From a virus, in the UHGV virus genome UHGV-0027446: a stretch of 44,346 bases of DNA; one strand, 5' to 3'. The first letter of the stretch is position 1; each line of letters starts with the position of its first letter. The translations under genes were made by a program, and so were the position numbers. The notes below the pieces were generated by a model. It saw nothing but the letters and a program-made list of their open reading frames with translations. It was not told the origin of the DNA and made no database searches. Below are positions 4,908-40,094 of this stretch, one piece after another.

Positions 4908-4911
4908 TTCT

Positions 4912-17973: not shown

Positions 17974-18002
17974 TTGACTTTTACTAAGAAATATGGTAAG
18001 CT
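17974..18002 (+). promoter_or_regulatory. extended -10 promoter of conserved element copy R1 (TTGACT-N14-TGgTAAGCT)
   Basis: Near-identical promoter at 31328..31356. Confidence 0.45.
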
Positions 18003-18005
18003 CAG

Positions 18006-18215
18006 CCTGAGCTTGTGAAGTATGAACAAGCGACCGCGGCGCGCGGCAGGCGAAACGAGCACGTGTAGCGTGTGGAGTGAGGCTCGCTAGCGCGTTTGGG
18101 AGGCCCAAAGTCTATTGTAATTCCAGCCTAAATATCTAAGTTACTGATTTGCCGTAGGTTTTATCCGCAAGCTCACTCACTCACTCTTGGTGCCTTCGGC
18201 ACCACGTTCGTTTCG
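18006..18215 (+). ncRNA. candidate conserved leader / small RNA, copy R1
   Basis: Begins at predicted TSS with 38 nt identical to 31360..31397, including hairpin GCTTGT-gaagtatga-ACAAGC; ends near GGTGCC-TTCG-GGCACC hairpin. Confidence 0.3.
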
Positions 18216-22534: not shown

Positions 22535-22567
22535 TACTTCATCGACAACGAGAACGGAGTAGAGAAG

Positions 22568-23348: not shown

Positions 23349-23535
23349 ACCAGTAGTAATTGATGGCGTCCTGTGGAAACCTTACTCGGTTAACCACATC
23401 GACGCCGACGGGAAGAAGTTCAGCTTCTACATTTTTGCAATTAGCCGTGAGCACGCCGCCTGTGTGGTAGACGATATACGAGAAACGGCGTGGCTCGGTG
23501 ATGAGATAGTGGGGTGGGAGTATGGAACAGATTGA
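23335..23535 (+). CDS. hypothetical protein
   Basis: Internal ATG of track ORF 23323..23535. Confidence 0.35.
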   Translation: MGAPEPVVIDGVLWKPYSVNHIDADGKKFSFYIFAISREHAACVVDDIRETAWLGDEIVGWEYGTD

Positions 23536-23782
23536 ACAACTCAAGAAGAACAACAAAGACCTTAAGAAGGCGCTTGATAAGATTAACGGTAAATACTCAA
23601 AAGCAACTCAGGAACTGACCGCTGCGAAACTTGAGATTGAACACTTAACGCGTGTTCGCGATATTCTGGAGAACGCAGAAACTTTGCGTAGCCAGTGGGC
23701 GTTGACAAATACGACAGTATCGATTCTGATTGGAGTAGCGGTCGGGATGTTAGTTATGTGGGGTGTTGGGTATGTTCAATGA
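23522..23782 (+). CDS. coiled-coil protein with C-terminal transmembrane anchor
   Basis: N-terminal heptad-like region, C-terminal VSILIGVAVGMLVMWGVGYV. Confidence 0.45.
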   Translation: MEQIEQLKKNNKDLKKALDKINGKYSKATQELTAAKLEIEHLTRVRDILENAETLRSQWALTNTTVSILIGVAVGMLVMWGVGYVQ

Positions 23783-23942
23783 CATAGACGCAGCAATCGA
23801 AGAAGCAATCTGGCGACGTTACAATGGCGAGCAGCAACGGCACTTCTGCCTCGTGCAACGCGGCAACATGGTGGCTGTGGTGCAGGACCGGGATAACAAA
23901 TACCCGAATGCGATGTGGACAACGAGGAATTTCTTAGGATGA
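23772..23942 (+). CDS. small hypothetical protein (56 aa)
   Basis: Hand-translated MFNDIDAAIEEAIWRRYNGEQQRHF...; ATGA coupled to next gene. Confidence 0.3.
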   Translation: MFNDIDAAIEEAIWRRYNGEQQRHFCLVQRGNMVAVVQDRDNKYPNAMWTTRNFLG

Positions 23943-24175
23943 TTACCAGCATTCCGAACCTGATTAAAGAATTCGGCACGATGGCGGAGACATGCCGACA
24001 AACCGGCATCAATGAAATGACCATCGCCAAGTACAGCAAAGACGTTGATTGCGAGCGTCACGTAATTTATAACAACCGTCTGATGACGCACGTTAAGACA
24101 AGTCCGGTGTTATTCACGCGCCGCGGTATCACTAAAACTGAGCAACGTATCGCACGAGGGGAGAGCAGGGAATGA
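23939..24175 (+). CDS. hypothetical protein (possible DNA-binding)
   Basis: Internal ATG of track ORF 23915..24175. Confidence 0.4.
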   Translation: MITSIPNLIKEFGTMAETCRQTGINEMTIAKYSKDVDCERHVIYNNRLMTHVKTSPVLFTRRGITKTEQRIARGESRE

Positions 24176-24247
24176 TTGACGTCTGAATAGCCCGCTAGTA
24201 TAGTTAAAACGCTTCATACACTAATTTAACGAACAGAGAGAGCAAAC

Positions 24248-24478
24248 ATGGGTACTAAATTTGAAGTAATCGACGAAAACACAGTTACGGTAACGGAAGA
24301 AGGTAGCCACTACATCCTTATTGATAAGGTAAACGGTAGCTGGAGAGCAAAAGCGTACTTTAACGGCGGCGCTACAGTCGTATCAAAAGGAGCGCATGCG
24401 TCTTTTACTTCCGCGTACGACAACCTTAAAGATGCGGTTAAAGCCGCAGCCAGTCATCTGGCATCCGTAGAGCTGTAA
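24248..24478 (+). CDS. hypothetical protein
   Basis: ATG after AGAGAGAG; followed by terminator. Confidence 0.45.
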   Translation: MGTKFEVIDENTVTVTEEGSHYILIDKVNGSWRAKAYFNGGATVVSKGAHASFTSAYDNLKDAVKAAASHLASVEL

Positions 24479-24493
24479 AATAACCAACCCACA

Positions 24494-24518
24494 AGCCCTC
24501 TACGGAGGGCTTTTCTGT
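24494..24518 (+). terminator. rho-independent terminator
   Basis: AGCCCTC-TACG-GAGGGCT followed by TTTTCT. Confidence 0.55.
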
Positions 24519-24610
24519 ACATCCCGCCCAATCACCTTATATAATCCCTTTAGACGCGTAGGGCGCGTCTGGTGCGCTCTGATGGTCAGACGCATACGCA
24601 AGGGGATTCT

Positions 24611-25123
24611 ATGAAGCTGAAACTCAAGCAGCCATCACCAGAGGTGGTGCAAGCTGCACATGAAGAAGCTGTTAGCGCAAACCGTCGCCGTAAACGGCCG
24701 CGCGGAAAACAGAGCCTTTATCAATCGTCCCGTAATTCTGCCGCGTTGTGGGACCCGGACTATTGCGACGAATTGATTCGATTCTTCGACCGCACGTCGT
24801 GGAAGCTTGTGCCTACGTCTAAGGGTGATGAACGCCCGCTGATTCAGGATAAACCGCCGTCTCTCGCCCGCTTCGCCCTGCACATCGGCGTCACTATCCC
24901 AATTATTAAGCTGTGGCTGCGCGAGATTCCTGCATTTGCCGAAGCCTGGGAAACAGCACAGGCGCTGGAAGAGGCGTATTTCACTGAGACAGGGGCCGCG
25001 GGTATCTCTGCTACGTTTGCTGCCGCTAAGCTGGGCCTGAATAAGAAAGAAGAATCGACTGGCGAGGGTTCTGAACCTATCGAGATTCGTTTCGTTAAGG
25101 CTGTTAAACCGGGGGGCGAGTAA
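24611..25123 (+). CDS. terminase small subunit
   Basis: Immediately upstream of and overlapping terminase large subunit; basic N-terminus and HTH-like LARFALHIGVTIPIIKLWL. Confidence 0.55.
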   Translation: MKLKLKQPSPEVVQAAHEEAVSANRRRKRPRGKQSLYQSSRNSAALWDPDYCDELIRFFDRTSWKLVPTSKGDERPLIQDKPPSLARFALHIGVTIPIIKLWLREIPAFAEAWETAQALEEAYFTETGAAGISATFAAAKLGLNKKEESTGEGSEPIEIRFVKAVKPGGE

Positions 25124-26358
25124 TGGATATTCCATTAACAGAACCCCAACAGGACTTTGTATTCAGTACAAAGACACATCCAGCTATTGTCGCTGGACTG
25201 GGGGCAGGTAAGTCCCGCGCGGCAACGATGCGCCTTTTGTATCTTATGTTGCGCGAGCGCGGGATAAACACCCTGTACACCATGCCTACGTATGACCTGT
25301 TGAAGCTGCGCGCCATCCCTGGGGTGGTTGATGACCTGAATATGATGGGGCTTAAGTATGACCTCAACAAATCGGAATACAGTATCCACGTTAAGGGGTA
25401 CGGCACTATGTTTTTCCGGTCATACGACAACCCGAACCGTCTAATCGCTTTTGAAGTGGCGCATTCTGTCGCAGACGAACTTGACGTGCTTACTAAAGAA
25501 CAGGCATCTCTGGTGTGGCGTAAGATTTCAGAGCGTACCCGACAACCATGTAGGGGTGGGAACAGTATTGCCGCCGTGACTACACCTGACCAGGGATTCT
25601 CTGGATTTGTGTACGACTATTGGGTTACTAACGCCGACAGTTCTACGGAACTGATTAAGGCATCTACATTGTCGAACCCATATTTACCTGAAGGCTACGT
25701 CGAGCAGATACGAAGGAACTACGACGCGGCTTTGGCCGATATGTATATCCACGGTGAATTTGTCAGTTTGACGGCCAATAAGGTGTATCACTATTTCAAG
25801 CGAAGCACACATGACTCCGCCCGCACCTTGCAGAACGGAGACGCTCTGCATATAGGGCTGGACTTTAACATCGGCGGCTGTTGCGCCACCGTGAGCGTTA
25901 TCGAAGACGGCAACCCGACGGTTGTTGATGAGTTTGTCAGTCATAATACCGACGATTTCGTCAATAACGTCAGGATACGGTACCCGGGCCATACGGTTAC
26001 GGTTTACCCCGACGCCTCAGGCCGCTCAGGCCACACTAACGCATCATTATCCGACATAGGTATCATCGAAAAGGCCGGCTTACGTGTTAACGCTCCAAGT
26101 AAGAACCCATTCGTTAAAGACAGAATAAACGCGGTTAACGCGCTTTTGTCACATAGCCGTTTGAGGGTTAACACTTCAAAATGCCCTAAATTAACGCAGT
26201 CACTGGAAACGCAGGGGTATAACGATAATGGCGAACCGGAGAAGTTTAAAACTCACCCGGCTATTGACGACTGGAACGACAGTTTAGGTTATTGTATGCA
26301 CAGGTTGTTCCCTGTTGTCCGCCCTGTTATCAACACTCCTGTCAGATTCGCACTTTAA
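25123..26358 (+). CDS. terminase large subunit
   Basis: Walker A GLGAGKS, Walker B VADELD, C-terminal nuclease-type acidic motifs (GLDFN...). Confidence 0.8.
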   Translation: MDIPLTEPQQDFVFSTKTHPAIVAGLGAGKSRAATMRLLYLMLRERGINTLYTMPTYDLLKLRAIPGVVDDLNMMGLKYDLNKSEYSIHVKGYGTMFFRSYDNPNRLIAFEVAHSVADELDVLTKEQASLVWRKISERTRQPCRGGNSIAAVTTPDQGFSGFVYDYWVTNADSSTELIKASTLSNPYLPEGYVEQIRRNYDAALADMYIHGEFVSLTANKVYHYFKRSTHDSARTLQNGDALHIGLDFNIGGCCATVSVIEDGNPTVVDEFVSHNTDDFVNNVRIRYPGHTVTVYPDASGRSGHTNASLSDIGIIEKAGLRVNAPSKNPFVKDRINAVNALLSHSRLRVNTSKCPKLTQSLETQGYNDNGEPEKFKTHPAIDDWNDSLGYCMHRLFPVVRPVINTPVRFAL

Positions 26359-26370
26359 GAGGATTATTCA

Positions 26371-27840
26371 ATGTTAACTATGAACGGTCAGAATCAGGGT
26401 GTTAAGATAAAACACCGGGAATGGCTGCACCACTTCGATAAATGGCAGAAGGTACGCCACGCACTGGAAGGTGACCTTATTCGCTATCTTCGCAATGTGG
26501 GGAAGAATGAGCCTGACCCGACCTACGCGGCACAGCGCCAGGAAGAATACGAGAACGGCGCTATCTGCTACAACTTCACTAAACGTACCCTGGCGGGGAT
26601 GGTTGGGTCGGTAATGCGTAAAGACCCTGAGCAGATTATCCCGCCTGAACTGGAGTACCTGTTACGTAACGCCGACGGTTCCGGTGTCGGCCTGTGGCAG
26701 CACGCGCAGGACACTCTTATGGAGATTGACTCGGTAGGCCGTGGTGGGTTGCTGGTGGACGCCCCGGAGACAGCCGCGGCAACGGCAGCCGAACAGAACG
26801 CAGGGTTATTAAACCCGGTCATCGCATTCTATACCGCAGAGAACATCATCAACTGGCGACTGACTCGCGTCGGTTCTGTTAACCGCGTGACAATGGTTGT
26901 ACTACGTGAGGTATGGGAGTACTCAGAACCTGGTGCAGAGTTCGAAACAAAATTCGGCGAGCAATACCGCGTTCTCGATTTGATTGACGGGCGCTATCGC
27001 CAGCGCATTTACCGCTTCGATGCCGAAGGTGGCGCACATGGCGACGTAAAAGAAATCTTCCCGGAACTTGGCGGACAGTTGCGCGGCAAAATCCCGTTCA
27101 CGTTCATTGGGGCAAGCAACAACGACGCAACCATTGACGACGCGCCTTTGCTGCCGTTGGCTGAACTTAATATCGGGCATTTCCGCAACAGCGCGGACAA
27201 TGAGGAATCCAGCTTCGTTGTGGGCCAGCCCACTCTGTTCATCGCCCCTGGTGAGAACATGAACACGGAACAGTGGAAAGAAGCCAACCCCCACGGCGTG
27301 CGCATGGGGTCGCGTTCAGGTCACAACATCGGCTACGGCGGCAATGCGTTTCTTGTCCAGGCGGGTGAGAACAACCTCGCCAAACAGAACATGCTGGATA
27401 AAGAGAACCAGGCCATTCAGATTGGCGCGCAGCTTATCACCCCGACGCAGCAAATCACCGCGGAGTCAGCCCGCCTGCAACGTGGTGCTGATACTTCAGT
27501 TATGGCGACAATCGCGCGTAACGTAAGCATGGCGTATACCGATGCGTTGCGTTGGGTTGCGGGTATGCTCGGACTTAGTGACGGTACTGAAATTGAGTTC
27601 AAACTGAACATGGAGTTCTTCCTGCAACCGATGACCGCTCAGGACCGTGCTCAGTGGATGGCAGACATTAACGCAGGTTTGCTACCCGCCACTGCTTACT
27701 ATGCCGCGTTGCGTAAGGCTGGTGTAACCGACTGGACAGACGAGGATATTCAGAACGCTATCGAGGACGCGCCGCTGCCGTTAGGTGCAAATACTCAGGT
27801 AGCGGGGGAGATTCCGCAGTCGGCGCAGCAACAGGAGTAA
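26371..27840 (+). CDS. portal protein
   Basis: 489-codon ORF directly after terminase large subunit; assignment by size and position. Confidence 0.6.
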   Translation: MLTMNGQNQGVKIKHREWLHHFDKWQKVRHALEGDLIRYLRNVGKNEPDPTYAAQRQEEYENGAICYNFTKRTLAGMVGSVMRKDPEQIIPPELEYLLRNADGSGVGLWQHAQDTLMEIDSVGRGGLLVDAPETAAATAAEQNAGLLNPVIAFYTAENIINWRLTRVGSVNRVTMVVLREVWEYSEPGAEFETKFGEQYRVLDLIDGRYRQRIYRFDAEGGAHGDVKEIFPELGGQLRGKIPFTFIGASNNDATIDDAPLLPLAELNIGHFRNSADNEESSFVVGQPTLFIAPGENMNTEQWKEANPHGVRMGSRSGHNIGYGGNAFLVQAGENNLAKQNMLDKENQAIQIGAQLITPTQQITAESARLQRGADTSVMATIARNVSMAYTDALRWVAGMLGLSDGTEIEFKLNMEFFLQPMTAQDRAQWMADINAGLLPATAYYAALRKAGVTDWTDEDIQNAIEDAPLPLGANTQVAGEIPQSAQQQE

Positions 27841-27843
27841 ATA

Positions 27844-27867
27844 TTAAGGCCCCGATAGGGGCCTTAA
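27844..27867. terminator. bidirectional terminator (TTAAGGCCCC-GATA-GGGGCCTTAA)
   Basis: Perfect 10-bp stem between convergent portal and nuclease genes. Confidence 0.6.
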
Positions 27868-27869
27868 TC

Positions 27870-29285
27870 TCACTTATTCCACACCAATTTCTCTTGTCCG
27901 CTATCCCATATGCGGGATACACCTTCCTCGGCGTACCATTCCGACTGAGTGAGACCCTCTGGCGCTTTGTTCCATTTTTGCCGTGATTCTGTTTTAGTCG
28001 CATTGTTTACGACGATACGGAAGCCGCATCTCACAGAAGCCTTTTTAAACCCCGCTGATAAGTATGCTTCTCCGGTAAATAAATCCCGGTCAGTGTAGGT
28101 AAAACCGTCGGTGATGCTATAACGGCGTACTGCGTAAGTCCATAGCTTTGACAGCCCTCCGACCACCGAACATGACGTAGCGTACCGCACAAGTTCCCAT
28201 TCGCCTTTTCTACACGTCAGCGTCATTACCGCGACAATCTTCTCTTCATACACAAGGCTGATATACTTCGTCGAGTTACGGAATCCTTGTATGTGGTTCT
28301 CCTCCAGAAAATATTCTGCGCGCAGTTTGTTAATCTCTTTTACATGGCATTTGCGGGCGAAAACGCGCAAAGAAGAGACGCCAACGGAATGGCTGATTAT
28401 TTTCTTTATTATTTCTTTTTTATGCAGCCATAGCTCGTCCCTTATTGACAGGAGTCGGAACCCTCTTGCCTCAACGGCAACTCTTTTCTCCATGTGATAC
28501 TTTCTCCCCTTCCCGGCAGCTTCGCTGTGCCAGTACAGGCCGTTTATTTCTATAGCCAGATTATGTTGTGGTATTAAAATATCTATCTCTCTTGGGTGGA
28601 TAAGACTTCTATCATTCCGACGATATTCCACCCCCATGCTGTCGAGAAATTCACAGACTTCATCCTCCACTTTACTACGCCCAAACGACGCACACCGCGG
28701 GCACCCTCTACCCTGAAAGATGTTACCAAGCGTAGCGGCCCATTCATGGCCTTTTTGACACCTCAGTGCCGACGGCATACGGCAGATATCCCCTGAATAA
28801 GACACCAGTTCAAAACCAGTGCCGCGTAACCTTTCCTCTATTTCGCCGATCTCAAGCCTTTTTCTGTTAGTGCTGCAATTCGGGCAATGACTTTTACCCC
28901 TTAAAACGTCGCTGCCGGTAGCGGACCAGACGAACCCGCATTTACATCTGAACGTTGATTTCCCACTGACAGCACCCGCGTAGCGAACACATTCAACCCC
29001 ATTAGGCCACTCTGCTACTTTCGCCCGTTTTTCCTCCGCATAGCATTGCGGGCAACCATGACCGTTCAGGACGGTATTAGCCTTTGTATCCCACACATGC
29101 CCCCTACGGCAGCGGAATTTAGACTTAAGTTTAGAGTGACCCGCATACTCAATTACGACTATCCCCCGTGATTCTAGTCTCAGGTTTATATCTTCTTCGG
29201 TTAAACGTCTGGACCCCATTAAAATATCCTCCACTTCTTCTTCTAGTATAAAGATTGCGCATATACATGTATCACAGCAAGACAT
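27870..29285 (-). CDS. multi-domain nuclease-like protein: three zinc-ribbon repeats + Vsr/PD-(D/E)XK-like core + C-terminal domain (homing-endonuclease-like)
   Basis: Three repeats of F(R/K)C..GH.W......(L/F).G.GCP.C; REIDILIPQHNLAIEINGLYWHS...ARGFRLLSIRD; alternative start at internal ATG 29219 after GGAGGA. Confidence 0.55.
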   Translation of the reverse strand: MSCCDTCICAIFILEEEVEDILMGSRRLTEEDINLRLESRGIVVIEYAGHSKLKSKFRCRRGHVWDTKANTVLNGHGCPQCYAEEKRAKVAEWPNGVECVRYAGAVSGKSTFRCKCGFVWSATGSDVLRGKSHCPNCSTNRKRLEIGEIEERLRGTGFELVSYSGDICRMPSALRCQKGHEWAATLGNIFQGRGCPRCASFGRSKVEDEVCEFLDSMGVEYRRNDRSLIHPREIDILIPQHNLAIEINGLYWHSEAAGKGRKYHMEKRVAVEARGFRLLSIRDELWLHKKEIIKKIISHSVGVSSLRVFARKCHVKEINKLRAEYFLEENHIQGFRNSTKYISLVYEEKIVAVMTLTCRKGEWELVRYATSCSVVGGLSKLWTYAVRRYSITDGFTYTDRDLFTGEAYLSAGFKKASVRCGFRIVVNNATKTESRQKWNKAPEGLTQSEWYAEEGVSRIWDSGQEKLVWNK

Positions 29286-29356
29286 CGCACCGCAATAAAA
29301 AAAATCCCTGAAATATTATTTCTATGCGTTACACTGTCGATACTACAGGAGGGCTT

Positions 29357-30400
29357 ATGAGCTTACTTACATCCCTAATCAGCCACCAGATATGGCTGCA
29401 ACGCACCGCATCCGGCGAAGTGAAAGACCTCGCACCGTTCATTAAGGAAATGCGGGACGAAATCAAACGGCAGGTGCTGCTATTCGGTGACGACGGTCGC
29501 AGCACTGCGCGGCTGAATAAACTGTTACACGACCTTGAAGAAGCACTAACCGGACTTACAGGTGACTGGCAAACAAAGCTAACAGAAGACCTTAAGGAAC
29601 TGGCGGCATATGAGGCTGAGTGGAACGTAAAGACACTGACGGCTAACGTTAACGCTGAATTTGTTACGCCTACCGCCGAACAGGTGTGGGCCGCTGCCGA
29701 GTTTCAGCCCTTATCGTTAAGCGACAAGCCCGTCGATTTCACTAAGCTGATGGATGGCTGGGGTGAAACAGAAGTATCGCGCCTGGTAACCGGCGTTAAG
29801 ATGGGTTTTGTGCAAGGCCAGACAACACGGCAGATTGTTAAGAATGTCGTAGGCGCTGGCGGACTGGCAGACATCTCTGAGCGCAACGCCGCTGCGGTAA
29901 TCCGCACCGCGCTGTCCCATGTATCCAACGAAGCTCGTAACGAGACGTACCGCCAGAACGACGACATCATCGAGAAATACGAATGGGTGTCAACTCTGGA
30001 CAGCCGTACCAGCACGATTTGCAGGGCCAGAGACGGAATGACGTGGGAAATTGGTAAAGGGCCGATGCCCCCCGCCCATCCGAATTGCCGGTCGTGCACG
30101 GCTCCGGTAATTAGTTCCGAGTTCGACTTCCTTGATAAAGGCGCAAAACGCGCGGCTAAGGGTGCAGATGGCGGTACTCAGGTAAGCGCAGACACAACCT
30201 ATTACGAGTTCCTTAAACAACAGCCAGCGTGGTTTCAGGACCAGGCGCTCGGCCCAGTTCGCGGTAAGATTTTCCGTAACAGCGGTATATCGCTGGAAGA
30301 GTTTCGCGTAATATCTGTAGATGGTTTCGGGAATCCGCTCACGCTTAAGCAGATGGCGGAACTCGATAAACGTGTTGCTGATTATCTGAAAGGGGAATAA
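29357..30400 (+). CDS. head morphogenesis protein (SPP1 gp7 / Mu F-like minor head protein)
   Basis: LDSRTSTICRARDGMTW...HPNCRSC signature; AGGAGGG SD before internal ATG of track ORF. Confidence 0.75.
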   Translation: MSLLTSLISHQIWLQRTASGEVKDLAPFIKEMRDEIKRQVLLFGDDGRSTARLNKLLHDLEEALTGLTGDWQTKLTEDLKELAAYEAEWNVKTLTANVNAEFVTPTAEQVWAAAEFQPLSLSDKPVDFTKLMDGWGETEVSRLVTGVKMGFVQGQTTRQIVKNVVGAGGLADISERNAAAVIRTALSHVSNEARNETYRQNDDIIEKYEWVSTLDSRTSTICRARDGMTWEIGKGPMPPAHPNCRSCTAPVISSEFDFLDKGAKRAAKGADGGTQVSADTTYYEFLKQQPAWFQDQALGPVRGKIFRNSGISLEEFRVISVDGFGNPLTLKQMAELDKRVADYLKGE

Positions 30401-30861
30401 TGATGGGCTTTTTCAAAGTAACTGACGTACCGTCGCGTCGCGTAGTCCAGTACGCCCGTGTGTCTGGCTCCGGTGAGAACGTGGTGTTTATTGAAGATGA
30501 AAGTGTGCTAGGTACACCGGTAGACGACATGCCGTTTGCTGACAAGACTGGTATTGCGCTCCCCGCGGCGGGTATGCTTTATGAGATTCCGTATCTGGCT
30601 GACGCTGGTGATGTGTATTTCTCTGTGCAACCGAAAGACACGGAACTGACAGACGGCAGCGCAACTATCGCTGTCGAGGTTAAGGCAGGCAAAGCGCCGT
30701 ATGTGCTGACCTGGTACAAAGACGGGAAGGAAGTGGTAAACGCGCCGGAAGAGGCTTTGTCTCTGACGGTTAACGCTGCAGGTGAATACTTCGTTAAAGT
30801 CACCGATGCCGATGGGGTAGAGGCAGTAAGCAAAGCGGCGAAGGTTACCAAGCCAGAATGA
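30400..30861 (+). CDS. hypothetical structural protein with Ig-like C-terminal segment
   Basis: YVLTWYKDGKEV...GEYFVKVTDADG resembles Ig-like fold motif. Confidence 0.4.
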   Translation: MMGFFKVTDVPSRRVVQYARVSGSGENVVFIEDESVLGTPVDDMPFADKTGIALPAAGMLYEIPYLADAGDVYFSVQPKDTELTDGSATIAVEVKAGKAPYVLTWYKDGKEVVNAPEEALSLTVNAAGEYFVKVTDADGVEAVSKAAKVTKPE

Positions 30862-30865
30862 TAAA

Positions 30866-30892
30866 AGGCCCCTTACGGGGCCTTAGTTTTAT
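30866..30892. terminator. bidirectional terminator (AAGGCCCC-TTAC-GGGGCCTT + T-run)
   Basis: Between convergent genes 30400..30861 and 30889..31203. Confidence 0.55.
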
Positions 30893-31203
30893 TTCTTTCC
30901 TAATGCTTTCTTGATTGCTCTGTCGGCCAGACTTAACGGATGGTCTTTATGGCAATTGTCAGAAGATACTACACAAACATCCTCAACGTAATCGCGAAGC
31001 TGGCGAAGAGCTTCAAGTAACTCTGGTGCCGAGGCGATAAGTTCGGCGTCGTGTTTATCATTAATTTCTTCTGCAACTGGAGTTCGGATAGTACAGCCGT
31101 ACATTTTCTTTAATGAGCCTTTCTGAAACACAAACCACTCCTGCTCGCCTTTTTCTTTCTTGAACTCCCACGGACCTTTCGTGCCTTTAAATTCATCTTT
31201 CAC
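30889..31203 (-). CDS. hypothetical protein (opposite-strand insertion)
   Basis: GTG start after GAGGAGGG SD, driven by family-B promoter; GPWEF...LIASAPELLEAL motif. Confidence 0.45.
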   Translation of the reverse strand: MKDEFKGTKGPWEFKKEKGEQEWFVFQKGSLKKMYGCTIRTPVAEEINDKHDAELIASAPELLEALRQLRDYVEDVCVVSSDNCHKDHPLSLADRAIKKALGKK

Positions 31204-31232
31204 TTTATACCCTCCTCGTTTCGATGTAATGA

Positions 31233-31261
31233 ATAGTACCCTATTATGCTGGGGTGTGCAA
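31233..31261 (-). promoter_or_regulatory. sigma70-type promoter, family B (TTGCAC-N17-TACTAT)
   Basis: Minus-strand TTGCAC accccagcataataggg TACTAT. Confidence 0.5.
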
Positions 31262-31327
31262 ACTATTTATTAGCCTATTCCAGTTATTCCGCTCAATTGT
31301 AAATGTTGGAATAAACTATTCGAATAG

Positions 31328-31356
31328 TTGACTTTTCACTGAAAATATGCTAAGCT
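31328..31356 (+). promoter_or_regulatory. extended -10 promoter of conserved element copy R2 (TTGACT-N14-TGcTAAGCT)
   Basis: Same architecture as 17974..18002; -35 overlaps 16-bp palindrome AACTATTCGAATAGTT. Confidence 0.45.
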
Positions 31357-31359
31357 CCA

Positions 31360-31563
31360 CCTGAGCTTGTGAAGTATGAACAAGCGACCGCGGCGCGGGC
31401 AGGTAACGGAGCGGGACGTAAGTCCTGAGTGTAGTTACGCTGACGCGTTCGGAAGGGCCATACTCTATTGCTTGTGTAAAAAGTAACTGGTTTACTGAAA
31501 TTGCGCCGTTTCTATGTTTAAATGATAAGTACTAGCGCCCCGCTTTAAGGCGGGGCTTTACTT
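31360..31563 (+). ncRNA. candidate conserved leader / small RNA, copy R2 (upstream of spanin genes)
   Basis: 38 nt identical to R1 at predicted TSS, ~70% identity beyond; ends in GCCCCGC-TTTAAG-GCGGGGC hairpin + TTTACTT. Confidence 0.3.
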
Positions 31564-31580
31564 ATCGAGAAAGGAGAAAC

Positions 31581-31967
31581 ATGAATCTTAAAGCAGCAAT
31601 CATAACCACGGCATGTTCCGCGTTTCTCGTTTTCGCTTACGGGAAATACAACTATCTTCAAGGATGGAACGAAGGCCGGGAGAATCTCGTTTCGCAGCAA
31701 CAGCAGAAAGCACAAGCCGAGCTAGCGAAGAAAACACAACGGCAGCAGCAGGACGAATCAAAGGCCGCAGCCGCTGACATCGAAGGCAAGACGAAATCAG
31801 AGGTTATCACCCGTGAAGTCGTTAAGTACATTAAAACGCCTGGTCGCAGCGTATGCACTTTCGATGATGCTCGCGTCCTGCTCAAGTCCCGCGCCGTCGC
31901 AAACGCCAATTACATCCCCGGATACGACGATGATGCAGCCGCCGTGCAAACTGGCCGCACCAAGTAG
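31581..31967 (+). CDS. i-spanin (Rz-like)
   Basis: N-terminal TM segment, Q/K/A-rich coiled-coil region; AAGGAG SD; overlapping embedded lipoprotein gene. Confidence 0.6.
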   Translation: MNLKAAIITTACSAFLVFAYGKYNYLQGWNEGRENLVSQQQQKAQAELAKKTQRQQQDESKAAAADIEGKTKSEVITREVVKYIKTPGRSVCTFDDARVLLKSRAVANANYIPGYDDDAAAVQTGRTK

Positions 31968-32076
31968 CGACGCTGACGAGGATTTAGCTATTGACGTTCG
32001 GAACGCCGAATGCGTACGGCAACTGAGACTGAAAGTGTTCATGTTGCAGGATTACGTGAGGAATATTCTGGAATAG
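31813..32076 (+). CDS. o-spanin (Rz1-like outer-membrane lipoprotein), overlapping Rz in another frame
   Basis: Signal peptide with lipobox LASC, Pro-rich mature region; starts inside Rz gene and extends past its stop. Confidence 0.55.
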   Translation: MKSLSTLKRLVAAYALSMMLASCSSPAPSQTPITSPDTTMMQPPCKLAAPSSDADEDLAIDVRNAECVRQLRLKVFMLQDYVRNILE

Positions 32077-32158
32077 TTGCCTTGCATGTTGGAATAATTT
32101 ATTCTTGACATGTAAATCCGGGTGGCCCGGATTCCAACGTCCAGGGGACATACTGACT

Positions 32159-32863
32159 ATGAATCGTTTTTTACGCTATCCGTTCCAGGAAGAAGCTGGG
32201 GCAGAAGATAAATCCGGCGGCGGTGACGCTCCGAAAATGTTCACCGCTGAAGAAGTTCAGGCACTGATTGAGAAAGAAGTTGCCGGGCTTAAGGCTAATC
32301 AGGAAGCATTGCTGGCGGAGAAGAAAGAAGCCGCCCGTAAAGCAAAAGAGGCCGAAGAAGAACGGCAGCGCGCGCACCAGGAGGCGTTAAAAGCCGCTGG
32401 TAAGATGGACGAGTTCGAAAAGACGATCCGTAGCCAGTATGACCCGGTGTTGGCCGAGAAAGATGGACGCATCTCCAGAATGGCAGAGCGCATCCTTGGC
32501 AGCGAACGTAAAGCGGTGTTAGGCTCTTTCGCGGGCGACTTTATCACCCCGGAGGCAGTAGACATTCTCGCACCGTTCGTTAAGACTGAGTTCGAAGGCG
32601 ATGACGTGGTTACTAAATTTGTTGGCGCAGATGGCAACGTAATCACGACTGACCCGGAACAGTTCCGCAAATACCTGCGTGAACACAAAGCGTTTTCGCA
32701 TTTGATTAAAGCAAATGCAGCTTCCGGCGGCGGGGCTCCCGGTAGCAAAGGCGGCGGGGCCGCACCAGCGTTTAAAGACATGAGTGAAGCGGAGCGTATT
32801 GCTCTGTACGAATCGAACCCTGCCGAATTTGAACGGCAACTTAAAGCCCTGAGGAAAAAATAA
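32159..32863 (+). CDS. putative scaffolding protein
   Basis: Directly upstream of major capsid gene; Ala/Glu/Lys-rich predicted coiled coil. Confidence 0.5.
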   Translation: MNRFLRYPFQEEAGAEDKSGGGDAPKMFTAEEVQALIEKEVAGLKANQEALLAEKKEAARKAKEAEEERQRAHQEALKAAGKMDEFEKTIRSQYDPVLAEKDGRISRMAERILGSERKAVLGSFAGDFITPEAVDILAPFVKTEFEGDDVVTKFVGADGNVITTDPEQFRKYLREHKAFSHLIKANAASGGGAPGSKGGGAAPAFKDMSEAERIALYESNPAEFERQLKALRKK

Positions 32864-33912
32864 TGGCAATTACTACTATTGGCGATATCGTAACTGGTAA
32901 AGAATCGGTAATCCTGTCTTACATGACAGAGGATCCGGTAGAAAAAACCGCGTTTTTCCAGTCCGGTATTCTGACCCCAACTCCGTACGCCGCCGCTATC
33001 GCAAACGGCCCGTCCAACAAAGCTGTTCTGCCGTACTGGAAAGCGATTGATACCTCTATCGAGCCGAACTACTCGAACGACGTATATCAGGACGTCGCCA
33101 CCCCGCGTAACGTGCAGACCGGTGAGATGGATGTTCGCGTAGCTTACCTGAACGAAGGTTTTGGTCAGGCGGATTTGACTGTCGAACTGACCAGCCAGAA
33201 TCCGCTGCAATCCGTAGCGTCCCGTCTGGATAACTTCTGGCAACGTCAGGCACAACGCCGTCTGATTGCTACCGCGCTCGGTCTGTACAACGACAACGTA
33301 GCCGCTACCGATGCTTACCACGAGCAGAACGACATGGTTGTAGACGTGTCCGCCACTCTAGGCTTCGACTCCGGCGCGTTCATCGATGCTACTCAGACTA
33401 TGGGTGATGCGCTGATGGGCAACGGCGGTGAAGTTCTCGGTGCTATCGCGATGCACAGCTTCGTTTATGCGCAGGCTCGTAAGCAGCAGCTTATTGACTT
33501 CATCCGTGACGCTGACAACAACACCATGTTCGCCACCTACCAGGGCTACCGTGTGATTGTTGACGACAGCATGACCGTAGTTGGCTCCGGCTCGAGCCGC
33601 AAGTTCATTTCCATCATCTTCGGCAACGGCGCTATCGGTTACGGTGAAGGCAACCCAACCAATCCGCTGGCATACGAGCGCGAAGAGTCCCGCGGCAACG
33701 GCGGCGGTGCAGAAACACTGTGGACCCGTAAGACCTGGCTGCTGCATCCGTTGGGCTACAGCTTCACCAGCGCAGTAATCACCGGCAACGGCACCGAGAC
33801 TGTCGCCCGCTCTGCTTCCTGGCAGGACCTGGCGAATGCCTCAAACTGGAACCGTGTTGTTGAGCGTAAGCATGTACCGATTGCCTTCCTGGTAACTGGT
33901 GTCGGGGCTTAA
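32863..33912 (+). CDS. major capsid protein
   Basis: 349-codon ORF after scaffold gene, ATG overlapping previous stop, followed by strong terminator. Confidence 0.75.
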   Translation: MAITTIGDIVTGKESVILSYMTEDPVEKTAFFQSGILTPTPYAAAIANGPSNKAVLPYWKAIDTSIEPNYSNDVYQDVATPRNVQTGEMDVRVAYLNEGFGQADLTVELTSQNPLQSVASRLDNFWQRQAQRRLIATALGLYNDNVAATDAYHEQNDMVVDVSATLGFDSGAFIDATQTMGDALMGNGGEVLGAIAMHSFVYAQARKQQLIDFIRDADNNTMFATYQGYRVIVDDSMTVVGSGSSRKFISIIFGNGAIGYGEGNPTNPLAYEREESRGNGGGAETLWTRKTWLLHPLGYSFTSAVITGNGTETVARSASWQDLANASNWNRVVERKHVPIAFLVTGVGA

Positions 33913-33928
33913 GGTTAAGCTATAATCG

Positions 33929-33956
33929 AGAGGGACTTCGGTCCCTCTTTTCATTT
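33929..33956 (+). terminator. rho-independent terminator
   Basis: AGAGGGAC-TTCG-GTCCCTCT followed by TTTCATTT. Confidence 0.5.
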
Positions 33957-33971
33957 ACTAAGAGGTAAATT

Positions 33972-34271
33972 ATGGCCAAGACCGGAAAAGGCTTGCCGCG
34001 CAGCCTTCAGAATGTCGATTTCGGCGACTTTGATATCCCAGTCACGCCTGCTACTACCAGCGTAGTTGGTGGGGTTAAAAAGTCAGCTACTGTGGCTGCA
34101 CCTGCGGCCATTACCGCCGCCGCCGGAGTTCAGGCCGCCGCAGACCCGACTAAGGCGGAGTTTGATGCGCTTGTAGCAGAGTACAATAAACTCCGAACCG
34201 ATGTTACCGCGCTGCGAACTACCGTAGCAAATCTGCTGACTGCGCTTAAAAACGCAGGAACTGTAAGCTAA
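33972..34271 (+). CDS. hypothetical head protein (Ala-rich)
   Basis: ORF after capsid gene with AGAGG SD. Confidence 0.4.
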   Translation: MAKTGKGLPRSLQNVDFGDFDIPVTPATTSVVGGVKKSATVAAPAAITAAAGVQAAADPTKAEFDALVAEYNKLRTDVTALRTTVANLLTALKNAGTVS

Positions 34272-34283
34272 AGGAGCTTAAAA

Positions 34284-34634
34284 ATGGTTGATGTAATTAA
34301 ACGTCGCATTACTGGTGTCTCCGACGACTCCCCGGCCGATGGTCAGGTAGAAATTGACATGGAGAATATTTCTCCGGCGTCTTTCTCTACCGCACTTGCG
34401 GCTACCACCGCAGTTACGGCAGGACAGACCATGACGCTGACCGTAGCAGTAACCGGAGGGGCCGAACCGTATTCATACCAGTGGTTCAAGAACAATAACG
34501 CCATCCCAGGCGCTACTGCCGCTACCTATGCTAAAGCGTCAACCACTACCGCCGATTCTGGCACGTATAAAGTGGTTGTGCAGGATGATTATGGTAATAT
34601 TATCTCCAGTAGCACCGTAGCAACTGTGTCTTAA
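34284..34634 (+). CDS. Ig-like domain protein (possible head decoration)
   Basis: YSYQWFKNNNAIPGATAATYAKA...SGTYKVVVQD Ig-like motif. Confidence 0.45.
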   Translation: MVDVIKRRITGVSDDSPADGQVEIDMENISPASFSTALAATTAVTAGQTMTLTVAVTGGAEPYSYQWFKNNNAIPGATAATYAKASTTTADSGTYKVVVQDDYGNIISSSTVATVS

Positions 34635-34670
34635 TACAACGGCCCTTCGGGGCCGTAATAAGGAAAGGTC

Positions 34671-34850
34671 ATGGCCGATAATTATGTAATCCGCGAAAAG
34701 TACACCCACGTTGATATTGTTGACGGTCAGGTGATGCCAGTTCGCGGTGTGGTAGGGGCTGATGAACTGGTTGCGACTCAACCGGACAACGAAGAAGCGC
34801 ACAACAACGGCGGTGGTGCTAAGCGTCGTCGCCGTAAATCAGAGGAATAA
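34671..34850 (+). CDS. small hypothetical protein (59 aa)
   Basis: Hand-translated MADNYVIREKYTHVDIVDGQ...; AGGAAAGG SD; just below track cutoff. Confidence 0.3.
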   Translation: MADNYVIREKYTHVDIVDGQVMPVRGVVGADELVATQPDNEEAHNNGGGAKRRRRKSEE

Positions 34851-34853
34851 TTT

Positions 34854-35366
34854 ATGCCGCTAATCGTGGAAGATGGGTCGATAGTACCCAACGCCGACAG
34901 TTACATTAGTCTGGCTGACGCCCGCGCGTTAGCGGCTAATTATGGCCTTGAGCTACCGGAAGACGATATCGCTGCCGAAGTTGCCTTACGTAACGGTGCC
35001 ACTTATGTCGGGCTGGCAGAACCGCAGATGTGTGGTCGTCGCGTATCCGCTGAACAGTCTCTCGCTTACCCACGCGCTGGCGTAACGTTGAATGGCTTCC
35101 CTGTAGCTAACAATGCCATTCCGAAACAGGTAATTCTTGCGCAGGTAATCGCGTCCGCCACGTACGGGGCGGGCACAGAAGTGCGTGCTAACTCGGACGG
35201 TCGCTCCGTGCAGACTGAGCGCGTGGAAGGTGCAGTTACCGTGACATACTTCAACAACGGCAACAGTGGGGCTACAACTGCGATTACCGCCGCTGACGAC
35301 GCCTTACGCCCGTTACTGTGTGGCGGTCTCAACAATGGCTTCTCGTTTAACGTGTACCGGGGTTAA
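34854..35366 (+). CDS. putative head-tail connector/adaptor protein
   Basis: Position between head and tail genes; assignment by synteny only. Confidence 0.35.
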   Translation: MPLIVEDGSIVPNADSYISLADARALAANYGLELPEDDIAAEVALRNGATYVGLAEPQMCGRRVSAEQSLAYPRAGVTLNGFPVANNAIPKQVILAQVIASATYGAGTEVRANSDGRSVQTERVEGAVTVTYFNNGNSGATTAITAADDALRPLLCGGLNNGFSFNVYRG

Positions 35367-35368
35367 AA

Positions 35369-35983
35369 ATGGCGAAGACTAAGTCAGAGATGTTTACTCT
35401 TATCGGCACGAACCTCCCCGATAACACCACCGGACTTATTACCCCGGCCGCATTGCGCGAGGTAATGACGCAGATGGCTGACTCGCCTATTTACGCCACT
35501 CCTGGCGTTAAAGAGGTTGAAGTTCTCCGTGCTGCGTCTACTGTAACCCAAGCGCCTACCGCAGTAGATACAGCGTTGCAGCTAACTTTCGGTGCTGCGC
35601 AGGGTAGCGCATCCGACCCGGTAATGGTTAATGCCGCAGGGCTGGTTACGTTCAATACCGCGGGTAACTACGCCGTTCGCATCAAGTTACAGGCGGGGCG
35701 CACCGGAGCGAGCGGAACGTCTATCCTGTTGTCCCGCATTCTTCTTAACGGCGCTCAGTACGGCTCGCCCGCCGCTACGAAACTGGTAAGCGCCGATACT
35801 ACAATCCCGATTGAGTCTCGCGTCGTTATCAACCCCACCGCAGGCCAGACGTTTGCCGTTCAGATTATGCGAGATAGTGCCGGAACTAACTTCGGCGGCG
35901 TATACCCGCAAGCGGCTACCGTAACCACATGGGGTACAGCGCCCTCCGCGCTACTGGTTATTTCGAGACTGGAGGCCGCGTAA
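35369..35983 (+). CDS. hypothetical structural protein
   Basis: ORF with ATG overlapping previous stop in neck region. Confidence 0.4.
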   Translation: MAKTKSEMFTLIGTNLPDNTTGLITPAALREVMTQMADSPIYATPGVKEVEVLRAASTVTQAPTAVDTALQLTFGAAQGSASDPVMVNAAGLVTFNTAGNYAVRIKLQAGRTGASGTSILLSRILLNGAQYGSPAATKLVSADTTIPIESRVVINPTAGQTFAVQIMRDSAGTNFGGVYPQAATVTTWGTAPSALLVISRLEAA

Positions 35984-36114
35984 TGCGTAAGATAATTAAT
36001 ATGTGGATTAACTCTGATTTTTTGTGGAAGTACGAATTTTTGGTATCAGTGTTTGCGCTGGTATCAACAACAGCTCTAATTATATTTTTAGCGGTTTGCG
36101 GGGAGTCAGCATGA
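35983..36114 (+). CDS. small membrane peptide (43 aa)
   Basis: Internal ATG of track ORF 35929..36114; FLVSVFALVSTTALIIFLAV hydrophobic segment. Confidence 0.25.
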   Translation: MRKIINMWINSDFLWKYEFLVSVFALVSTTALIIFLAVCGESA

Positions 36115-36470
36115 GCACCGCTTTCAGTAAACGTATGCAAGGCGTGGGTACGCGCCTGCTAACCAAATTCGGTAGTACGGTATCTCTTGTTCGCGCTGGA
36201 TCGAAAGTGTGGGATGAAGTTCTCGGCGAGTACGTCTGGTCCGCGAATGAAGTGTTGCCGTTGAGGGCCGTTCCGGTTCCGGTAAACGTGGGACTGGTAA
36301 ACGGTACGTCGATTCAGGCCGGTGACGTGATCGTTAAAACTGATTGCAGCGTCGTTCCGAAGATGGAAGACAAGGTGCAATTCGACGGCGGGCAATGGTC
36401 TGTCGTAGCCATCGAGAAGAAGATGGTTAATGGTGATGTCGTAGCCTACTTTATTCAGGTGAGAAAATGA
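36111..36470 (+). CDS. putative neck/head-closure protein
   Basis: GGGGAG SD before internal ATG of track ORF 36024..36470; synteny only. Confidence 0.4.
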   Translation: MSTAFSKRMQGVGTRLLTKFGSTVSLVRAGSKVWDEVLGEYVWSANEVLPLRAVPVPVNVGLVNGTSIQAGDVIVKTDCSVVPKMEDKVQFDGGQWSVVAIEKKMVNGDVVAYFIQVRK

Positions 36471-36862
36471 GTTTCGCGCTTGATGTCTCTAAGTTCGTGG
36501 AAAAGGCGAAGAAGAACCCTGAGAAGGTGATGCGTCAGGTGTCTATCAAGCTGTTTTCCGCTATCATAAAGGCGAGTCCGGTAGACACTGGTCGGTTTCG
36601 TATGAACTGGATGGCATCTGGTGGTGCTCCCGCGACCAGAACCACAGACGCTACGGATAAATCAGGAAACACAGCAGTCGGAAACGCTACGAGTTTCGTT
36701 CTGAAAGCTACAGACTGGCACGAGTTCACGCTGACAAATAATCTGCCGTATGCGCAACGACTGGAGTATGGCTGGTCGCAACAGGCCCCACAAGGCATGG
36801 TCAGGACTAATATATCGCGTTTCCAGCAACTCATTAACGAAGAAGCCAACAAGGTGAAATGA
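36467..36862 (+). CDS. tail completion protein (HK97 gp10-like)
   Basis: PVDTGRFRMNW ... LPYAQRLEYG matches gp10-family signature. Confidence 0.55.
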   Translation: MSFALDVSKFVEKAKKNPEKVMRQVSIKLFSAIIKASPVDTGRFRMNWMASGGAPATRTTDATDKSGNTAVGNATSFVLKATDWHEFTLTNNLPYAQRLEYGWSQQAPQGMVRTNISRFQQLINEEANKVK

Positions 36863-37275
36863 TGGGCTACTTTGAGGACTTAACAAAAGCGTTTGACGTG
36901 CCGCTGGTAGCCTTCGGAACCACCAACGGCATCAAGGTTGCGCTTGAAAACATCGACGCGCCGACGTCAACCGATACGCCGTATCTGGCGAGTTACATGT
37001 TACTGGCGGATACGGAACAGGCTGACTTATTCTTCACCGAGCAACGCTCTGGTATTTATCAGGTCGACATTAACTACGCATCGGTGAAAGGTAGCGCGCC
37101 AATCAATAAAATGGCAGACTTACTTAACACGGCGTTTAAAGCAGGTAAGTCATTTTCGCGTAACGACATCTGCGCCGAGGTTCAATCGGTTAGCCTGGGG
37201 CCGCTGATTGTAGAAAACGGATGGGCCAAACGGCCATTGTCAATTAACTTTATTGCATTCACCAAGAGGCTGTGA
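36859..37275 (+). CDS. putative tail terminator protein
   Basis: Immediately upstream of major tail protein gene; synteny only. Confidence 0.4.
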   Translation: MMGYFEDLTKAFDVPLVAFGTTNGIKVALENIDAPTSTDTPYLASYMLLADTEQADLFFTEQRSGIYQVDINYASVKGSAPINKMADLLNTAFKAGKSFSRNDICAEVQSVSLGPLIVENGWAKRPLSINFIAFTKRL

Positions 37276-37277
37276 AT

Positions 37278-38447
37278 ATGGCTACAACTCCTTTTAAGGG
37301 CGCGAATACCGCGCAATTCTATGTGGCGGAAGTGACCCCGGGCGTAACACCAAGTAACCCGGTATGGTCGCCGCTGCGCAATACTGGCGGCGTTCCCGCG
37401 GTAACCCGCGACGCGCTGACTTCCAACGAACTCGACGGCAGCCGAGAAACTACATCCATCCGCACTGGTAACAAACAGGTCAGCGGCGAGTATGCCATTG
37501 AGCTTAGCTCCCGTAGTCAGGATGATTTCCTTGCTGGTGCGATGACATCTACTTGGCAGGATGGTGTAACCTTATCCGCTGTTGGCATTACGGTAGACCC
37601 TGTAGCTAAAACCTTTACCCGCGCCACCGGCAGCTTCATTACTGACGGCGTAGAGGTCGGGGACCTTCTGTATTTTGACGCTTTAACCGGAGATAACTCT
37701 AAGCCGTTCATCGTTACTGCCGTAACAGCTACTGTGGTTACTGGTGCAGGCATTCAGCACACCCTTACCGCCGAAGGCCCTATTGAGACCGATGGAAAAA
37801 CTGGCGATAAACTGGAAACCGGTAACGCATGTAAGACGTTCTCCATCCTGACATGGTTCAAAGGACAGTGCGGGAACCCTGACGCGTACATGTTGACCAA
37901 AGGCGTGGAAATCTCCGGTTTTACTATCGAGCAGGCCGTAAACGCGATGGTGACAGGCAGCTTCCCGTTCATCGGTCTGAGTCAGGAAATTCTTACCGCG
38001 CCGCCAGCAGGTTCTGACTTCTCCCAGGTTACGTTCACCGATGAGCCGTTCTCGTCTGTAGATGTATCTGTGTTCGACGGTTCCACGCCGTTGCGTTGTG
38101 ATACTCTGACCATCACCAACGACAACGGCGCATCTGCTCAGTTCGAACTCGGCAACAGTAGCGTTGCGTTCGTGGAACGTGGTCGCGCGGCTAACACCTT
38201 CTCTATCTCCGGCAAGCTGTACGACATGGCGATGATTCAGAAGTTTATCAACGAACAGCAGGTGGAGATTAACTCTATTCTGGCCGGGGTAAACGGGGCT
38301 ATGTCTTTCAGCCTGAAACGCGCAGAACTTACGGCGGTTACACCAGAGATTGGTGGGCCAGAGTCAATCACTCAGTCCATCGAAGGCCAGGCAACCGGCA
38401 ATCAGTATCAGTCATCTATTGTTATCCAGCGTATCACCTACGCATAA
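37278..38447 (+). CDS. major tail (tube) protein
   Basis: 389-codon ORF upstream of chaperone and tape-measure genes; AAGAGG SD. Confidence 0.6.
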   Translation: MATTPFKGANTAQFYVAEVTPGVTPSNPVWSPLRNTGGVPAVTRDALTSNELDGSRETTSIRTGNKQVSGEYAIELSSRSQDDFLAGAMTSTWQDGVTLSAVGITVDPVAKTFTRATGSFITDGVEVGDLLYFDALTGDNSKPFIVTAVTATVVTGAGIQHTLTAEGPIETDGKTGDKLETGNACKTFSILTWFKGQCGNPDAYMLTKGVEISGFTIEQAVNAMVTGSFPFIGLSQEILTAPPAGSDFSQVTFTDEPFSSVDVSVFDGSTPLRCDTLTITNDNGASAQFELGNSSVAFVERGRAANTFSISGKLYDMAMIQKFINEQQVEINSILAGVNGAMSFSLKRAELTAVTPEIGGPESITQSIEGQATGNQYQSSIVIQRITYA

Positions 38448-38450
38448 AAC

Positions 38451-38476
38451 TAAGGCCCCGACAGGGGCCTTTTTCT
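38451..38476. terminator. bidirectional terminator (TAAGGCCCC-GACA-GGGGCCTT + T-run)
   Basis: Between major tail gene and convergent minus-strand cassette. Confidence 0.6.
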
Positions 38477-38706
38477 CACTCATCTATATTACTCCTGTAT
38501 TCCCGTAACTTCTCCAGACTTTCAATTGCCTCCGCTAAGTCTGTTACAGTGTCCTTGTGACCACGCAAGCCCATGCACAATAGCTTCTTTAACGCATGCT
38601 GTAGCGCCGGGTCGCGGATATCGAAGGCCCGTAGCACATCGTAAACGTCTACGGTCATAGTGGTGCCGTGAGTATTTGTCATTGTGCGGTTGTATTTTGA
38701 AGTCAT
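38476..38706 (-). CDS. hypothetical protein (cassette gene 3)
   Basis: VYDVLRAF...ALQHALKKLLCMGLRGHKD motif; ATGA coupled to phosphoesterase gene. Confidence 0.45.
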   Translation of the reverse strand: MTSKYNRTMTNTHGTTMTVDVYDVLRAFDIRDPALQHALKKLLCMGLRGHKDTVTDLAEAIESLEKLREYRSNIDE

Positions 38707-39833: not shown

Positions 39834-39872
39834 GCTTTACTTCCTCGTGTTTAGGATTTGTCTTATAGTAGC

Positions 39873-40064: not shown

Positions 40065-40094
40065 TTTAAACCCCTTCATTGTTGGTGTAAGTGA

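Follow-up and report, generated by a model that had tools for sequence, protein, structure and literature searches.

What is the function of the conserved non-coding block that stands immediately before the spanin genes in phages of the subfamily Guernseyvirinae, and what does a related block do at the head of a second set of rightward genes in the same genome? Phages of the Guernseyvirinae (Kagunavirus, Jerseyvirus) rank with those that are most frequently isolated and put forward as therapy against E. coli and Salmonella, and to our knowledge their transcription programme is essentially uncharacterised. The window analysed here, that is, the whole 44,346-nt stretch of DNA (virus genome UHGV-0027446), is, judged by its sequence, derived from a Kagunavirus-like virulent siphophage of this subfamily. 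It carries two copies of the element, R1 and R2, and the region of R2, the copy preceding the spanin genes, is matched at 80-99% identity by 182 phage records from Escherichia, Salmonella, Raoultella and Shigella phages. We read R2 as a unit composed of a promoter, a non-coding leader and a terminator, and propose that it works as a leader/attenuator in which an RNA domain governs read-through of the terminator; we give this proposal a probability of roughly 0.45.

Genomic setting of the two copies

Based on synteny with phage fFiEco02, the rightward block led by R1 comprises small early genes and those for holins, endolysin, terminase and portal. R2 follows a short leftward gene and stands before the genes for spanins, scaffold, capsid and tail. 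The first gene after R2 is that of the i-spanin (Rz-like; 31571..31967 on the + strand, including its Shine-Dalgarno sequence), homologues of which are annotated as spanins. Its Shine-Dalgarno sequence AAGGAG occupies 31571-31576, and the 128-aa ORF begins with an ATG at 31581, both on the + strand; the embedded reading frame of the o-spanin (Rz1) comes next. R1 as a whole spans 17974..18204 (+) and consists of a promoter (17974-18002), the RNA domain (18003-18117) and a linker and 3' hairpin (18188-18204), the latter two being different from those of R2. The 3' part of R1 includes a (CACT)n microsatellite (18166-18184; also in L009), the copy number of which differs among phages.

At the position of R1, Jerseyvirus FSL SP-101 (L003) has a different non-coding unit of about 270 nt (35090-35400), extending from promoter to terminator (TTGACA-N17-TAAGTT ... 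GGGCAGG/CCTGCCC TTT). It has only a short 3' module in common with R1 of Kagunaviruses and may represent a second, unrelated leader RNA. Elsewhere in the window, a 68-aa ORF on the - strand (39873-40079) has a superinfection-immunity (Imm) domain (E = 1.3e-12) and belongs to a leftward cassette that has been inserted between tail genes.

The promoter P_R2

The promoter of R2, P_R2, lies at 31328..31356 on the + strand and is composed of the -35 hexamer TTGACT (31328-31333), a 17-bp spacer with TG at -15/-14 (31348-31349) and the -10 hexamer TAAGCT (31351-31356). The architecture TTGACT-N14-TGcTAAGCT, which the first-pass annotation had ascribed to both copies, is indeed present at the corresponding positions of R1 and R2. 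Moreover, the composite pattern TTGACW-N16-18-TAAGYT is found in the window only in these two places, with 0.05 occurrences expected. TTGACT, the 17-bp spacer with its TG and TAAGCT are kept in 94 of the 97 instances of the RNA domain, in which the -10 is separated from GAGCUUG by 5-6 nt while the sequence of the spacer varies; the three exceptions are a chance match, a mis-assembled record and one -35 variant. P_R2 was not listed by a generic sigma-70 scan because its -10, TAAGCT, is weak, agreeing with the consensus at three of six positions. It nevertheless has all the features of a sigma-70 extended -10 promoter (a TTGACA-like -35, a 17-bp spacer, TGn and TAnnnT), and its conservation pattern is the one that would be expected of a working promoter of this type. 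Transcription likely starts at about G31363. An inverted repeat, AAGCTC-N3-5-GAGCTT, extends across the -10 and the first transcribed bases in both copies (31351-31368 and 17997-18014); it is present in all types of the element, with conserved arms and a variable centre.

A conserved fold in the leader RNA

According to the first-pass annotation, R1 and R2 share an identical 38-nt transcript start. The identity is there (the 38-mer CCTGAGC...GCGCG occupies 31360-31397 and 18006-18043, whereas chance alone would give 0 such matches), but the homology extends well beyond it, over about 115 nt that correspond to a structured RNA domain. In R2 this domain is located at 31363..31470 on the + strand and scores 136 bits with the covariance model. 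It begins with a short hairpin, P1, in which 31365-31370 pair with 31380-31385 (GCUUGU/ACAAGC). Three further helices follow: P2, formed by 31388-31390 and 31392-31397 with 31444-31452 (CCG, a bulged C and GGXGCG versus CGCYUU-CGG), P3, formed by 31400-31407 with 31434-31442 (CAGGUAAC versus GUUAC(G)CUG), and P4, a variable hairpin (31412-31417 with 31422-31427). Together, P2, P3 and P4 make up one long irregular hairpin with conserved internal loops, among them GGAG opposite AGUGUA. The domain ends with a conserved 18-nt 3' tail, AAGGGCCAnAnUCUAUUG (31453-31470).

The alignment of the domain was assembled from 46 IMG/VR loci, 40 metagenome loci and several GenBank genomes, and yielded 37 distinct cores of at least five types, all having one and the same architecture. 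The X-Y pair of P2 is C-G, U-A or A-U, pairs of P3 alternate between U-A, A-U and G-C, and P4 is represented by at least six unrelated sequences, each of which can form a hairpin. Pairing holds in 95.9% of the cells of the model-based alignment. Seven pairs (45 cells) have changed on both sides, a number reached by 0 of 500 shuffles and falling to at most 5 cells when the partner is slid by 1-3 columns, although these counts are biased, as the alignment was fitted to the structure. Independently, RNAalifold arrived at a fold comprising P1-P3 and a portion of P4 and at seven compensatory pairs, and compensation can also be seen directly in the raw sequences. The fold belongs to the + strand, as two invariant G-U pairs show, and this strand is the one read from the adjacent promoter. 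We also considered a pseudoknot between the loop of P1 (AGUAUG) and the tail (CAUACU) and rejected it, since variants of the tail (C/G/A/U) are uncompensated and the type present at the R1 locus of phage fFiEco02 is unable to form it.

Searches with the covariance model found exactly two copies of the domain in the window (136 and 88 bits) and two in Kagunavirus fFiEco02. Jerseyvirus FSL SP-101 has one copy and none at its R1 locus. Types of the core have been swapped between the R1 and R2 loci.

A long hairpin at the 5' end of a transcript might also serve in RNA processing or stability, either as an RNase III site or as a protective 5' structure similar to the R-sites of T7, and so affect the half-life of mRNA and not transcription. 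The P2-P4 hairpin, with about 23 bp and internal loops at the transcripts' 5' end, would suit such a role. Yet sequence conservation in the loops and the 18-nt tail goes far beyond what RNase III needs for recognition, and the terminator that follows would be left unexplained. We thus regard a processing element as quite improbable.

The domain overlaps an ORF (MNKRPRR..., 31376-31486), which is listed in public records as a hypothetical protein of 36-38 aa. It is annotated as a CDS in fBC-Eco01 and ST521_1PISJ; GenBank entries with the annotation are OM272052 (fBCEco01_09) and PV057342 (CDS0062). If these records were right, the region would encode a 36-aa protein. However, frame-shifting indels cut the ORF to 9-22 aa in several variants, one type has no ATG, the ORF lacks a Shine-Dalgarno sequence, and substitutions within it preserve base pairs rather than codons. 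The ORF is therefore not conserved and its annotation as a CDS is probably spurious; we consider it barely credible that the region codes for a protein.

Distribution and conservation

No Rfam 15 family matched any part of the window at gathering thresholds, and at a relaxed E-value the best score for 31250-31620 was 16 bits, compared with a gathering threshold of 92. The window has no tRNA or tmRNA genes. A blastn search of 5,426 complete E. coli genomes did not detect the domain sequence, and among 185,579 prokaryotic species, each represented by one genome, there were seven chance pattern matches, none of which passed the covariance model. All copies found in IMG/VR and metagenomes reside in Guernseyvirinae genomes of about 41-45 kb and are joined to the same promoter. 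As these scans returned only Guernseyvirinae-type contigs of that size, they revealed neither distant relatives nor new contexts. Searches of the literature for the sequence and for RNA elements of Kagunavirus returned nothing on this element, and at keyword level the K1B4 transcriptome paper gave no match on promoters, intergenic or non-coding elements. The main feature of R2, overlooked in the first-pass annotation, is this structured RNA domain, which is without an Rfam match, absent from the papers searched and confined to Guernseyvirinae.

R2 and its surroundings are also unusually well conserved. Comparison of 31276-31575 with Jerseyvirus SP-101 in 50-nt windows gave 92-100% identity, versus 60-90% for the adjacent spanin, scaffold and capsid genes, and the block is the most conserved non-coding sequence compared between Kagunavirus and Jerseyvirus. 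Constraint is therefore stronger on every part of the block (upstream DNA, promoter, RNA domain, linker and terminator) than on the proteins.

DNA sites over and upstream of P_R2

The -35 of P_R2 is overlapped by a perfect 16-bp palindrome, AACTATTCGAATAGTT (31314..31329, no strand assigned), already pointed out in the first-pass annotation. It is the sole 16-bp palindrome in the window and is near-invariant in 50 unique R2 blocks. Since about 0.7 perfect 16-bp palindromes are expected in 44 kb by simple arithmetic (and 13 of 100 shuffles match within three mismatches), its presence is not significant by itself. Furthermore, it is conserved no more than the surrounding bases, its rare variants are asymmetric, and symmetric compensatory changes were not seen among the R2 variants. 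If transcription starts at G31363, the centre of the palindrome falls at about -41.5. This is the typical position of class II activators, so that activation would be as plausible as repression.

It had further been proposed that the half-site AATAGT/ACTATT recurs in most promoters of the genome. The recurrence holds (GAATAGT occurs 11 times in the window, with about five expected by our own estimate from the base composition of the window), but the half-site belongs to a separate box, AATAG-N4-CTATT, of another promoter class. Allowing for at most one mismatch, the box occurs 12 times in the window versus 1.0 expected; its 14-bp sites include those at 7209, 11739, 14405, 14450, 18297, 19662, 31232 and 40094. 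In TTGCAC-N17-TACTAT promoters of either strand the box covers the -10 (repeat families D3, D6 and D7), and it looks like a candidate operator of a global phage regulator. Two copies flank the gene of a Cro-like protein (14494-14709). The box is already known as a PHIRE motif: the 'phage promoter' motif tgAATAGTa-ccTATTat-T has been reported for Kagunavirus fBC-Eco01 and accounts for the recurrence of the half-site here (PMC9825357). Unlike the promoters that have this motif over the -10, P_R2 is of a different class and has the box over its -35, in the form of a one-mismatch copy, AATAGTTGACTTTT (31323..31336, no strand assigned). This copy has the geometry of the AATAG-N4-CTATT box, and its left arm is also part of the 16-bp palindrome, in which the arms are arranged in reverse (CTATT-CG-AATAG). 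R1 has neither the box nor the palindrome, and hence the two copies are probably regulated differently.

Farther upstream, a conserved region at 31276..31313 (+), 98% identical to that of Jerseyvirus SP-101, has GGAATA/TTATTCC repeats at 31276, 31285 and 31308. GGAATA also occurs at 32060, 32070 and 32091. The total number of GGAATA occurrences in the genome equals the chance expectation, and we therefore rejected it as a genome-wide motif; its local clustering alone is notable. In addition, the 12-mer ATGTTGGAATAA at 31303-31314 has an exact copy at 32086-32097, in the latter case upstream of the scaffold-gene promoter. The fact that both the 12-mer and GGAATA clusters precede P_R2 as well as the scaffold promoter suggests co-regulation of the two. 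These promoters also have a common -35 context, GAATAGTTG(A/C)CT. As far as can be judged from the sequence, the palindrome and the box over the -35, along with the GGAATA repeats, are probably protein-binding sites that would time P_R2.

Linker, terminator and read-through

Between the domain and the end of R2 there is an A/U-rich linker (31471..31536, +), specific to the R2 locus, which starts with a second copy of GCUUGUG (31471-31477). It is 92-96% identical to that of SP-101 and has few variants among 50 unique sequences. The linker leads to an intrinsic-terminator-like hairpin (31537..31563, +) made of GCCCCGC/UUUAAG/GCGGGGC (31537-31556) and UUUACUU (31557-31563). The first-pass annotation had placed such a hairpin just before the ribosome-binding site of the Rz-like gene; it ends 14 nt before the Shine-Dalgarno sequence and was flagged by a terminator scan. 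With an 8-pair stem, seven GC pairs and the tail TTTACTTATC, it has the characteristics of intrinsic terminators, and one sequence (E06) displays a compensatory variant of the stem, GCCCTGC...GCAGGGC. The U-tract UUUACUU is invariant but interrupted. R1 variants finish in two different, unrelated modules of a hairpin followed by a U-rich sequence. Further strong terminators on the + strand are found downstream among the rightward late genes, at 33928, 38452 and 40787. The last of these (40787-40810), a terminator-like hairpin with nine pairs, eight of them GC, and TTTTT, directly precedes the tape-measure gene and lies within the tail-assembly-chaperone region. Convergent transcription units end at bidirectional terminators of one family, AAGGCCCC-N4-GGGGCCTT (4880-4921, 30857-30898 and 38444-38485).

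No promoter was seen between the terminator at 31537 and the ribosome-binding site of the spanin gene. Consequently, expression of Rz/Rz1 appears to need read-through, which makes the role of an attenuator reasonable. As regards this role, which the first-pass annotation had also assigned to R2, a second promoter-leader copy with a terminator before the spanin ribosome-binding site is borne out, but an attenuator of the classical switch type is not. Minimum-free-energy folding of prefixes of all lengths indicates that the terminator folds independently of the leader, and neither prefix folding nor duplex searches detected a strong duplex with the upstream sequence. With no alternative pairing found between leader and terminator, a classical switch attenuator or riboswitch is thus not supported, and control by a modified RNA polymerase or a bound factor fits better.

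The same observations bear on the possibility that the domain is a riboswitch-like aptamer for a metabolite or ion, attached to locus-specific expression platforms, that is, to differing linkers and terminators. A core in which unpaired nucleotides are conserved and helices vary would be in line with an aptamer, and so would the three unrelated 3' platforms, each ending in a hairpin. However, apart from the failure to find mutually exclusive pairing of domain and terminator, the linker is as long as about 66 nt, and the domain is bound to one particular promoter and confined to one phage subfamily. An aptamer is therefore, in our opinion, highly doubtful.

A stronger challenge comes from the simple fact that a promoter, a structured RNA and a terminator are exactly the layout of a small-RNA gene. 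R1 and R2 might be stand-alone genes for abundant trans-acting small RNAs of about 200 nt, with spanins expressed only by leaky termination; such an RNA might sequester an RNA-binding protein of the host or phage, as a decoy or sponge, or have an anti-defence function. Each copy has its own promoter and a terminator-like 3' end, and the linker is conserved as much as the core. A separate promoter for the next genes stands downstream of R1, and the scaffold and capsid genes have an apparent conserved promoter of their own (TTGCCT-N17-TATTCT, 32077-32105). It follows that neither copy is strictly required for most of the downstream genes, which makes stand-alone small RNAs a serious rival. Since the U-tract UUUACUU is imperfect, simple leakiness could suffice for expression of the spanins. 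The phage also encodes a borderline ProQ-C-like protein, a 120-aa ORF on the - strand (13005-13367) that matches Pfam Phage_ProQ_C_like at threshold (27.3 versus 27 bits) and is a possible RNA-binding partner of the structured RNAs. On the other hand, complementarity of at least 14 nt is absent from the rest of the phage, where only 11-13-mers at the level of chance were found, and E. coli genomes, searched as those of the host, yielded no match. In contrast to typical Hfq-type small RNAs, the U-tail is interrupted as well as short, and the terminator stands 14 nt before a ribosome-binding site for which there is no other promoter. On balance, stand-alone small RNAs seem to us somewhat unlikely.

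We thus return to the leader/attenuator as the preferred reading, which may be outlined as follows. A host sigma-70 extended -10 promoter would drive synthesis of a non-coding leader of about 200 nt, the first 110 nt or so of which would fold during transcription into the two-hairpin domain followed by the conserved single-stranded tail. The terminator would then gate transcription into Rz/Rz1 and possibly on into the capsid and tail genes, with the RNA domain as the cis-acting element that decides on read-through. This could be achieved in two ways: the domain might act on the very RNA polymerase that made it, as put of phage HK022 does, or it might recruit a phage or host factor, as in the case of nut and conAn. 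In Kagunaviruses, the same promoter-plus-domain cassette, as part of R1, also heads the rightward early, lysis and packaging region. Scans of 30 proteins against PHROGs and Pfam identified no homologue of Q or N, only two HTH regulators. A more far-reaching version is that the domain of about 110 nt represents a new class of nascent RNA, unrelated to put, which makes host RNA polymerase terminator-resistant either by itself or together with a small phage protein that has escaped recognition and is carried by virulent Guernseyvirinae as a portable cassette. We regard this version as unlikely.

If the domain does control read-through, it would be a second, unrelated example on a very short list of RNA elements acting on polymerase, and would offer synthetic biology a compact, portable part consisting of a promoter and an RNA. 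If it is a small RNA instead, it would still be a regulator candidate that is clear and open to testing, in phages of clinical relevance.

Comparison with known antitermination systems

In phage lambda, the PR'-6S RNA-tR' region consists of a promoter, a leader of about 200 nt and an intrinsic terminator just upstream of the lysis genes, with structural genes beyond. R2 resembles it in having a promoter, a leader of about 200 nt and a terminator immediately before lysis genes. Accordingly, one might suppose that a DNA-binding protein similar to Q is loaded onto polymerase at the promoter and that the RNA structure is incidental, all the more so as the promoter is conserved together with the initially transcribed region. 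Control in lambda, however, relies on DNA signals (the Q-binding element and a sigma-dependent pause) together with the Q protein, whereas here compensatory changes point to selection on the RNA fold itself and Q was not found among the 30 proteins scanned. Control of the PR' type is therefore very improbable.

Lambda also has nut, a leader RNA element located downstream of the main promoter, which together with a factor enables polymerase to resist terminators. The bipartite conAn system, made up of a protein and a leader RNA, is reported to render polymerase terminator-resistant (PMC8191782). Similarly to nut and conAn, the domain is a leader RNA element downstream of a promoter; unlike them, it is larger than boxA/boxB, and its host range and sequence are unrelated.

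A further parallel is provided by put of HK022, which is present in two promoter-proximal copies, each with two irregular bulged stem-loops and followed by terminators (PMC9378689). The put RNA attaches to the zinc-binding domain of RNA polymerase beta' and suppresses termination in cis without protein factors. The domain differs from put, which is about 70 nt long and belongs to a lambdoid phage, in being about 110 nt long and residing in a virulent siphophage; a similar action of the domain on polymerase is proposed here by analogy. When the covariance model of the domain was run with filters off on HK022 22000-40751, it had no match in the early region and one weak hit (14.9 bits) on PR' promoter DNA. 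Given this lack of similarity, homology with put was rejected. The likeness is one of layout and, in the proposed reading, of function. As with putL and putR, there are two related copies per genome, one of them starting a few nucleotides from the transcription start, and each is promoter-proximal and placed upstream of a terminator. Also as in put, the domain consists of two adjacent irregular stem-loops with bulges, terminators stand downstream, and no dedicated antiterminator protein is recognised.
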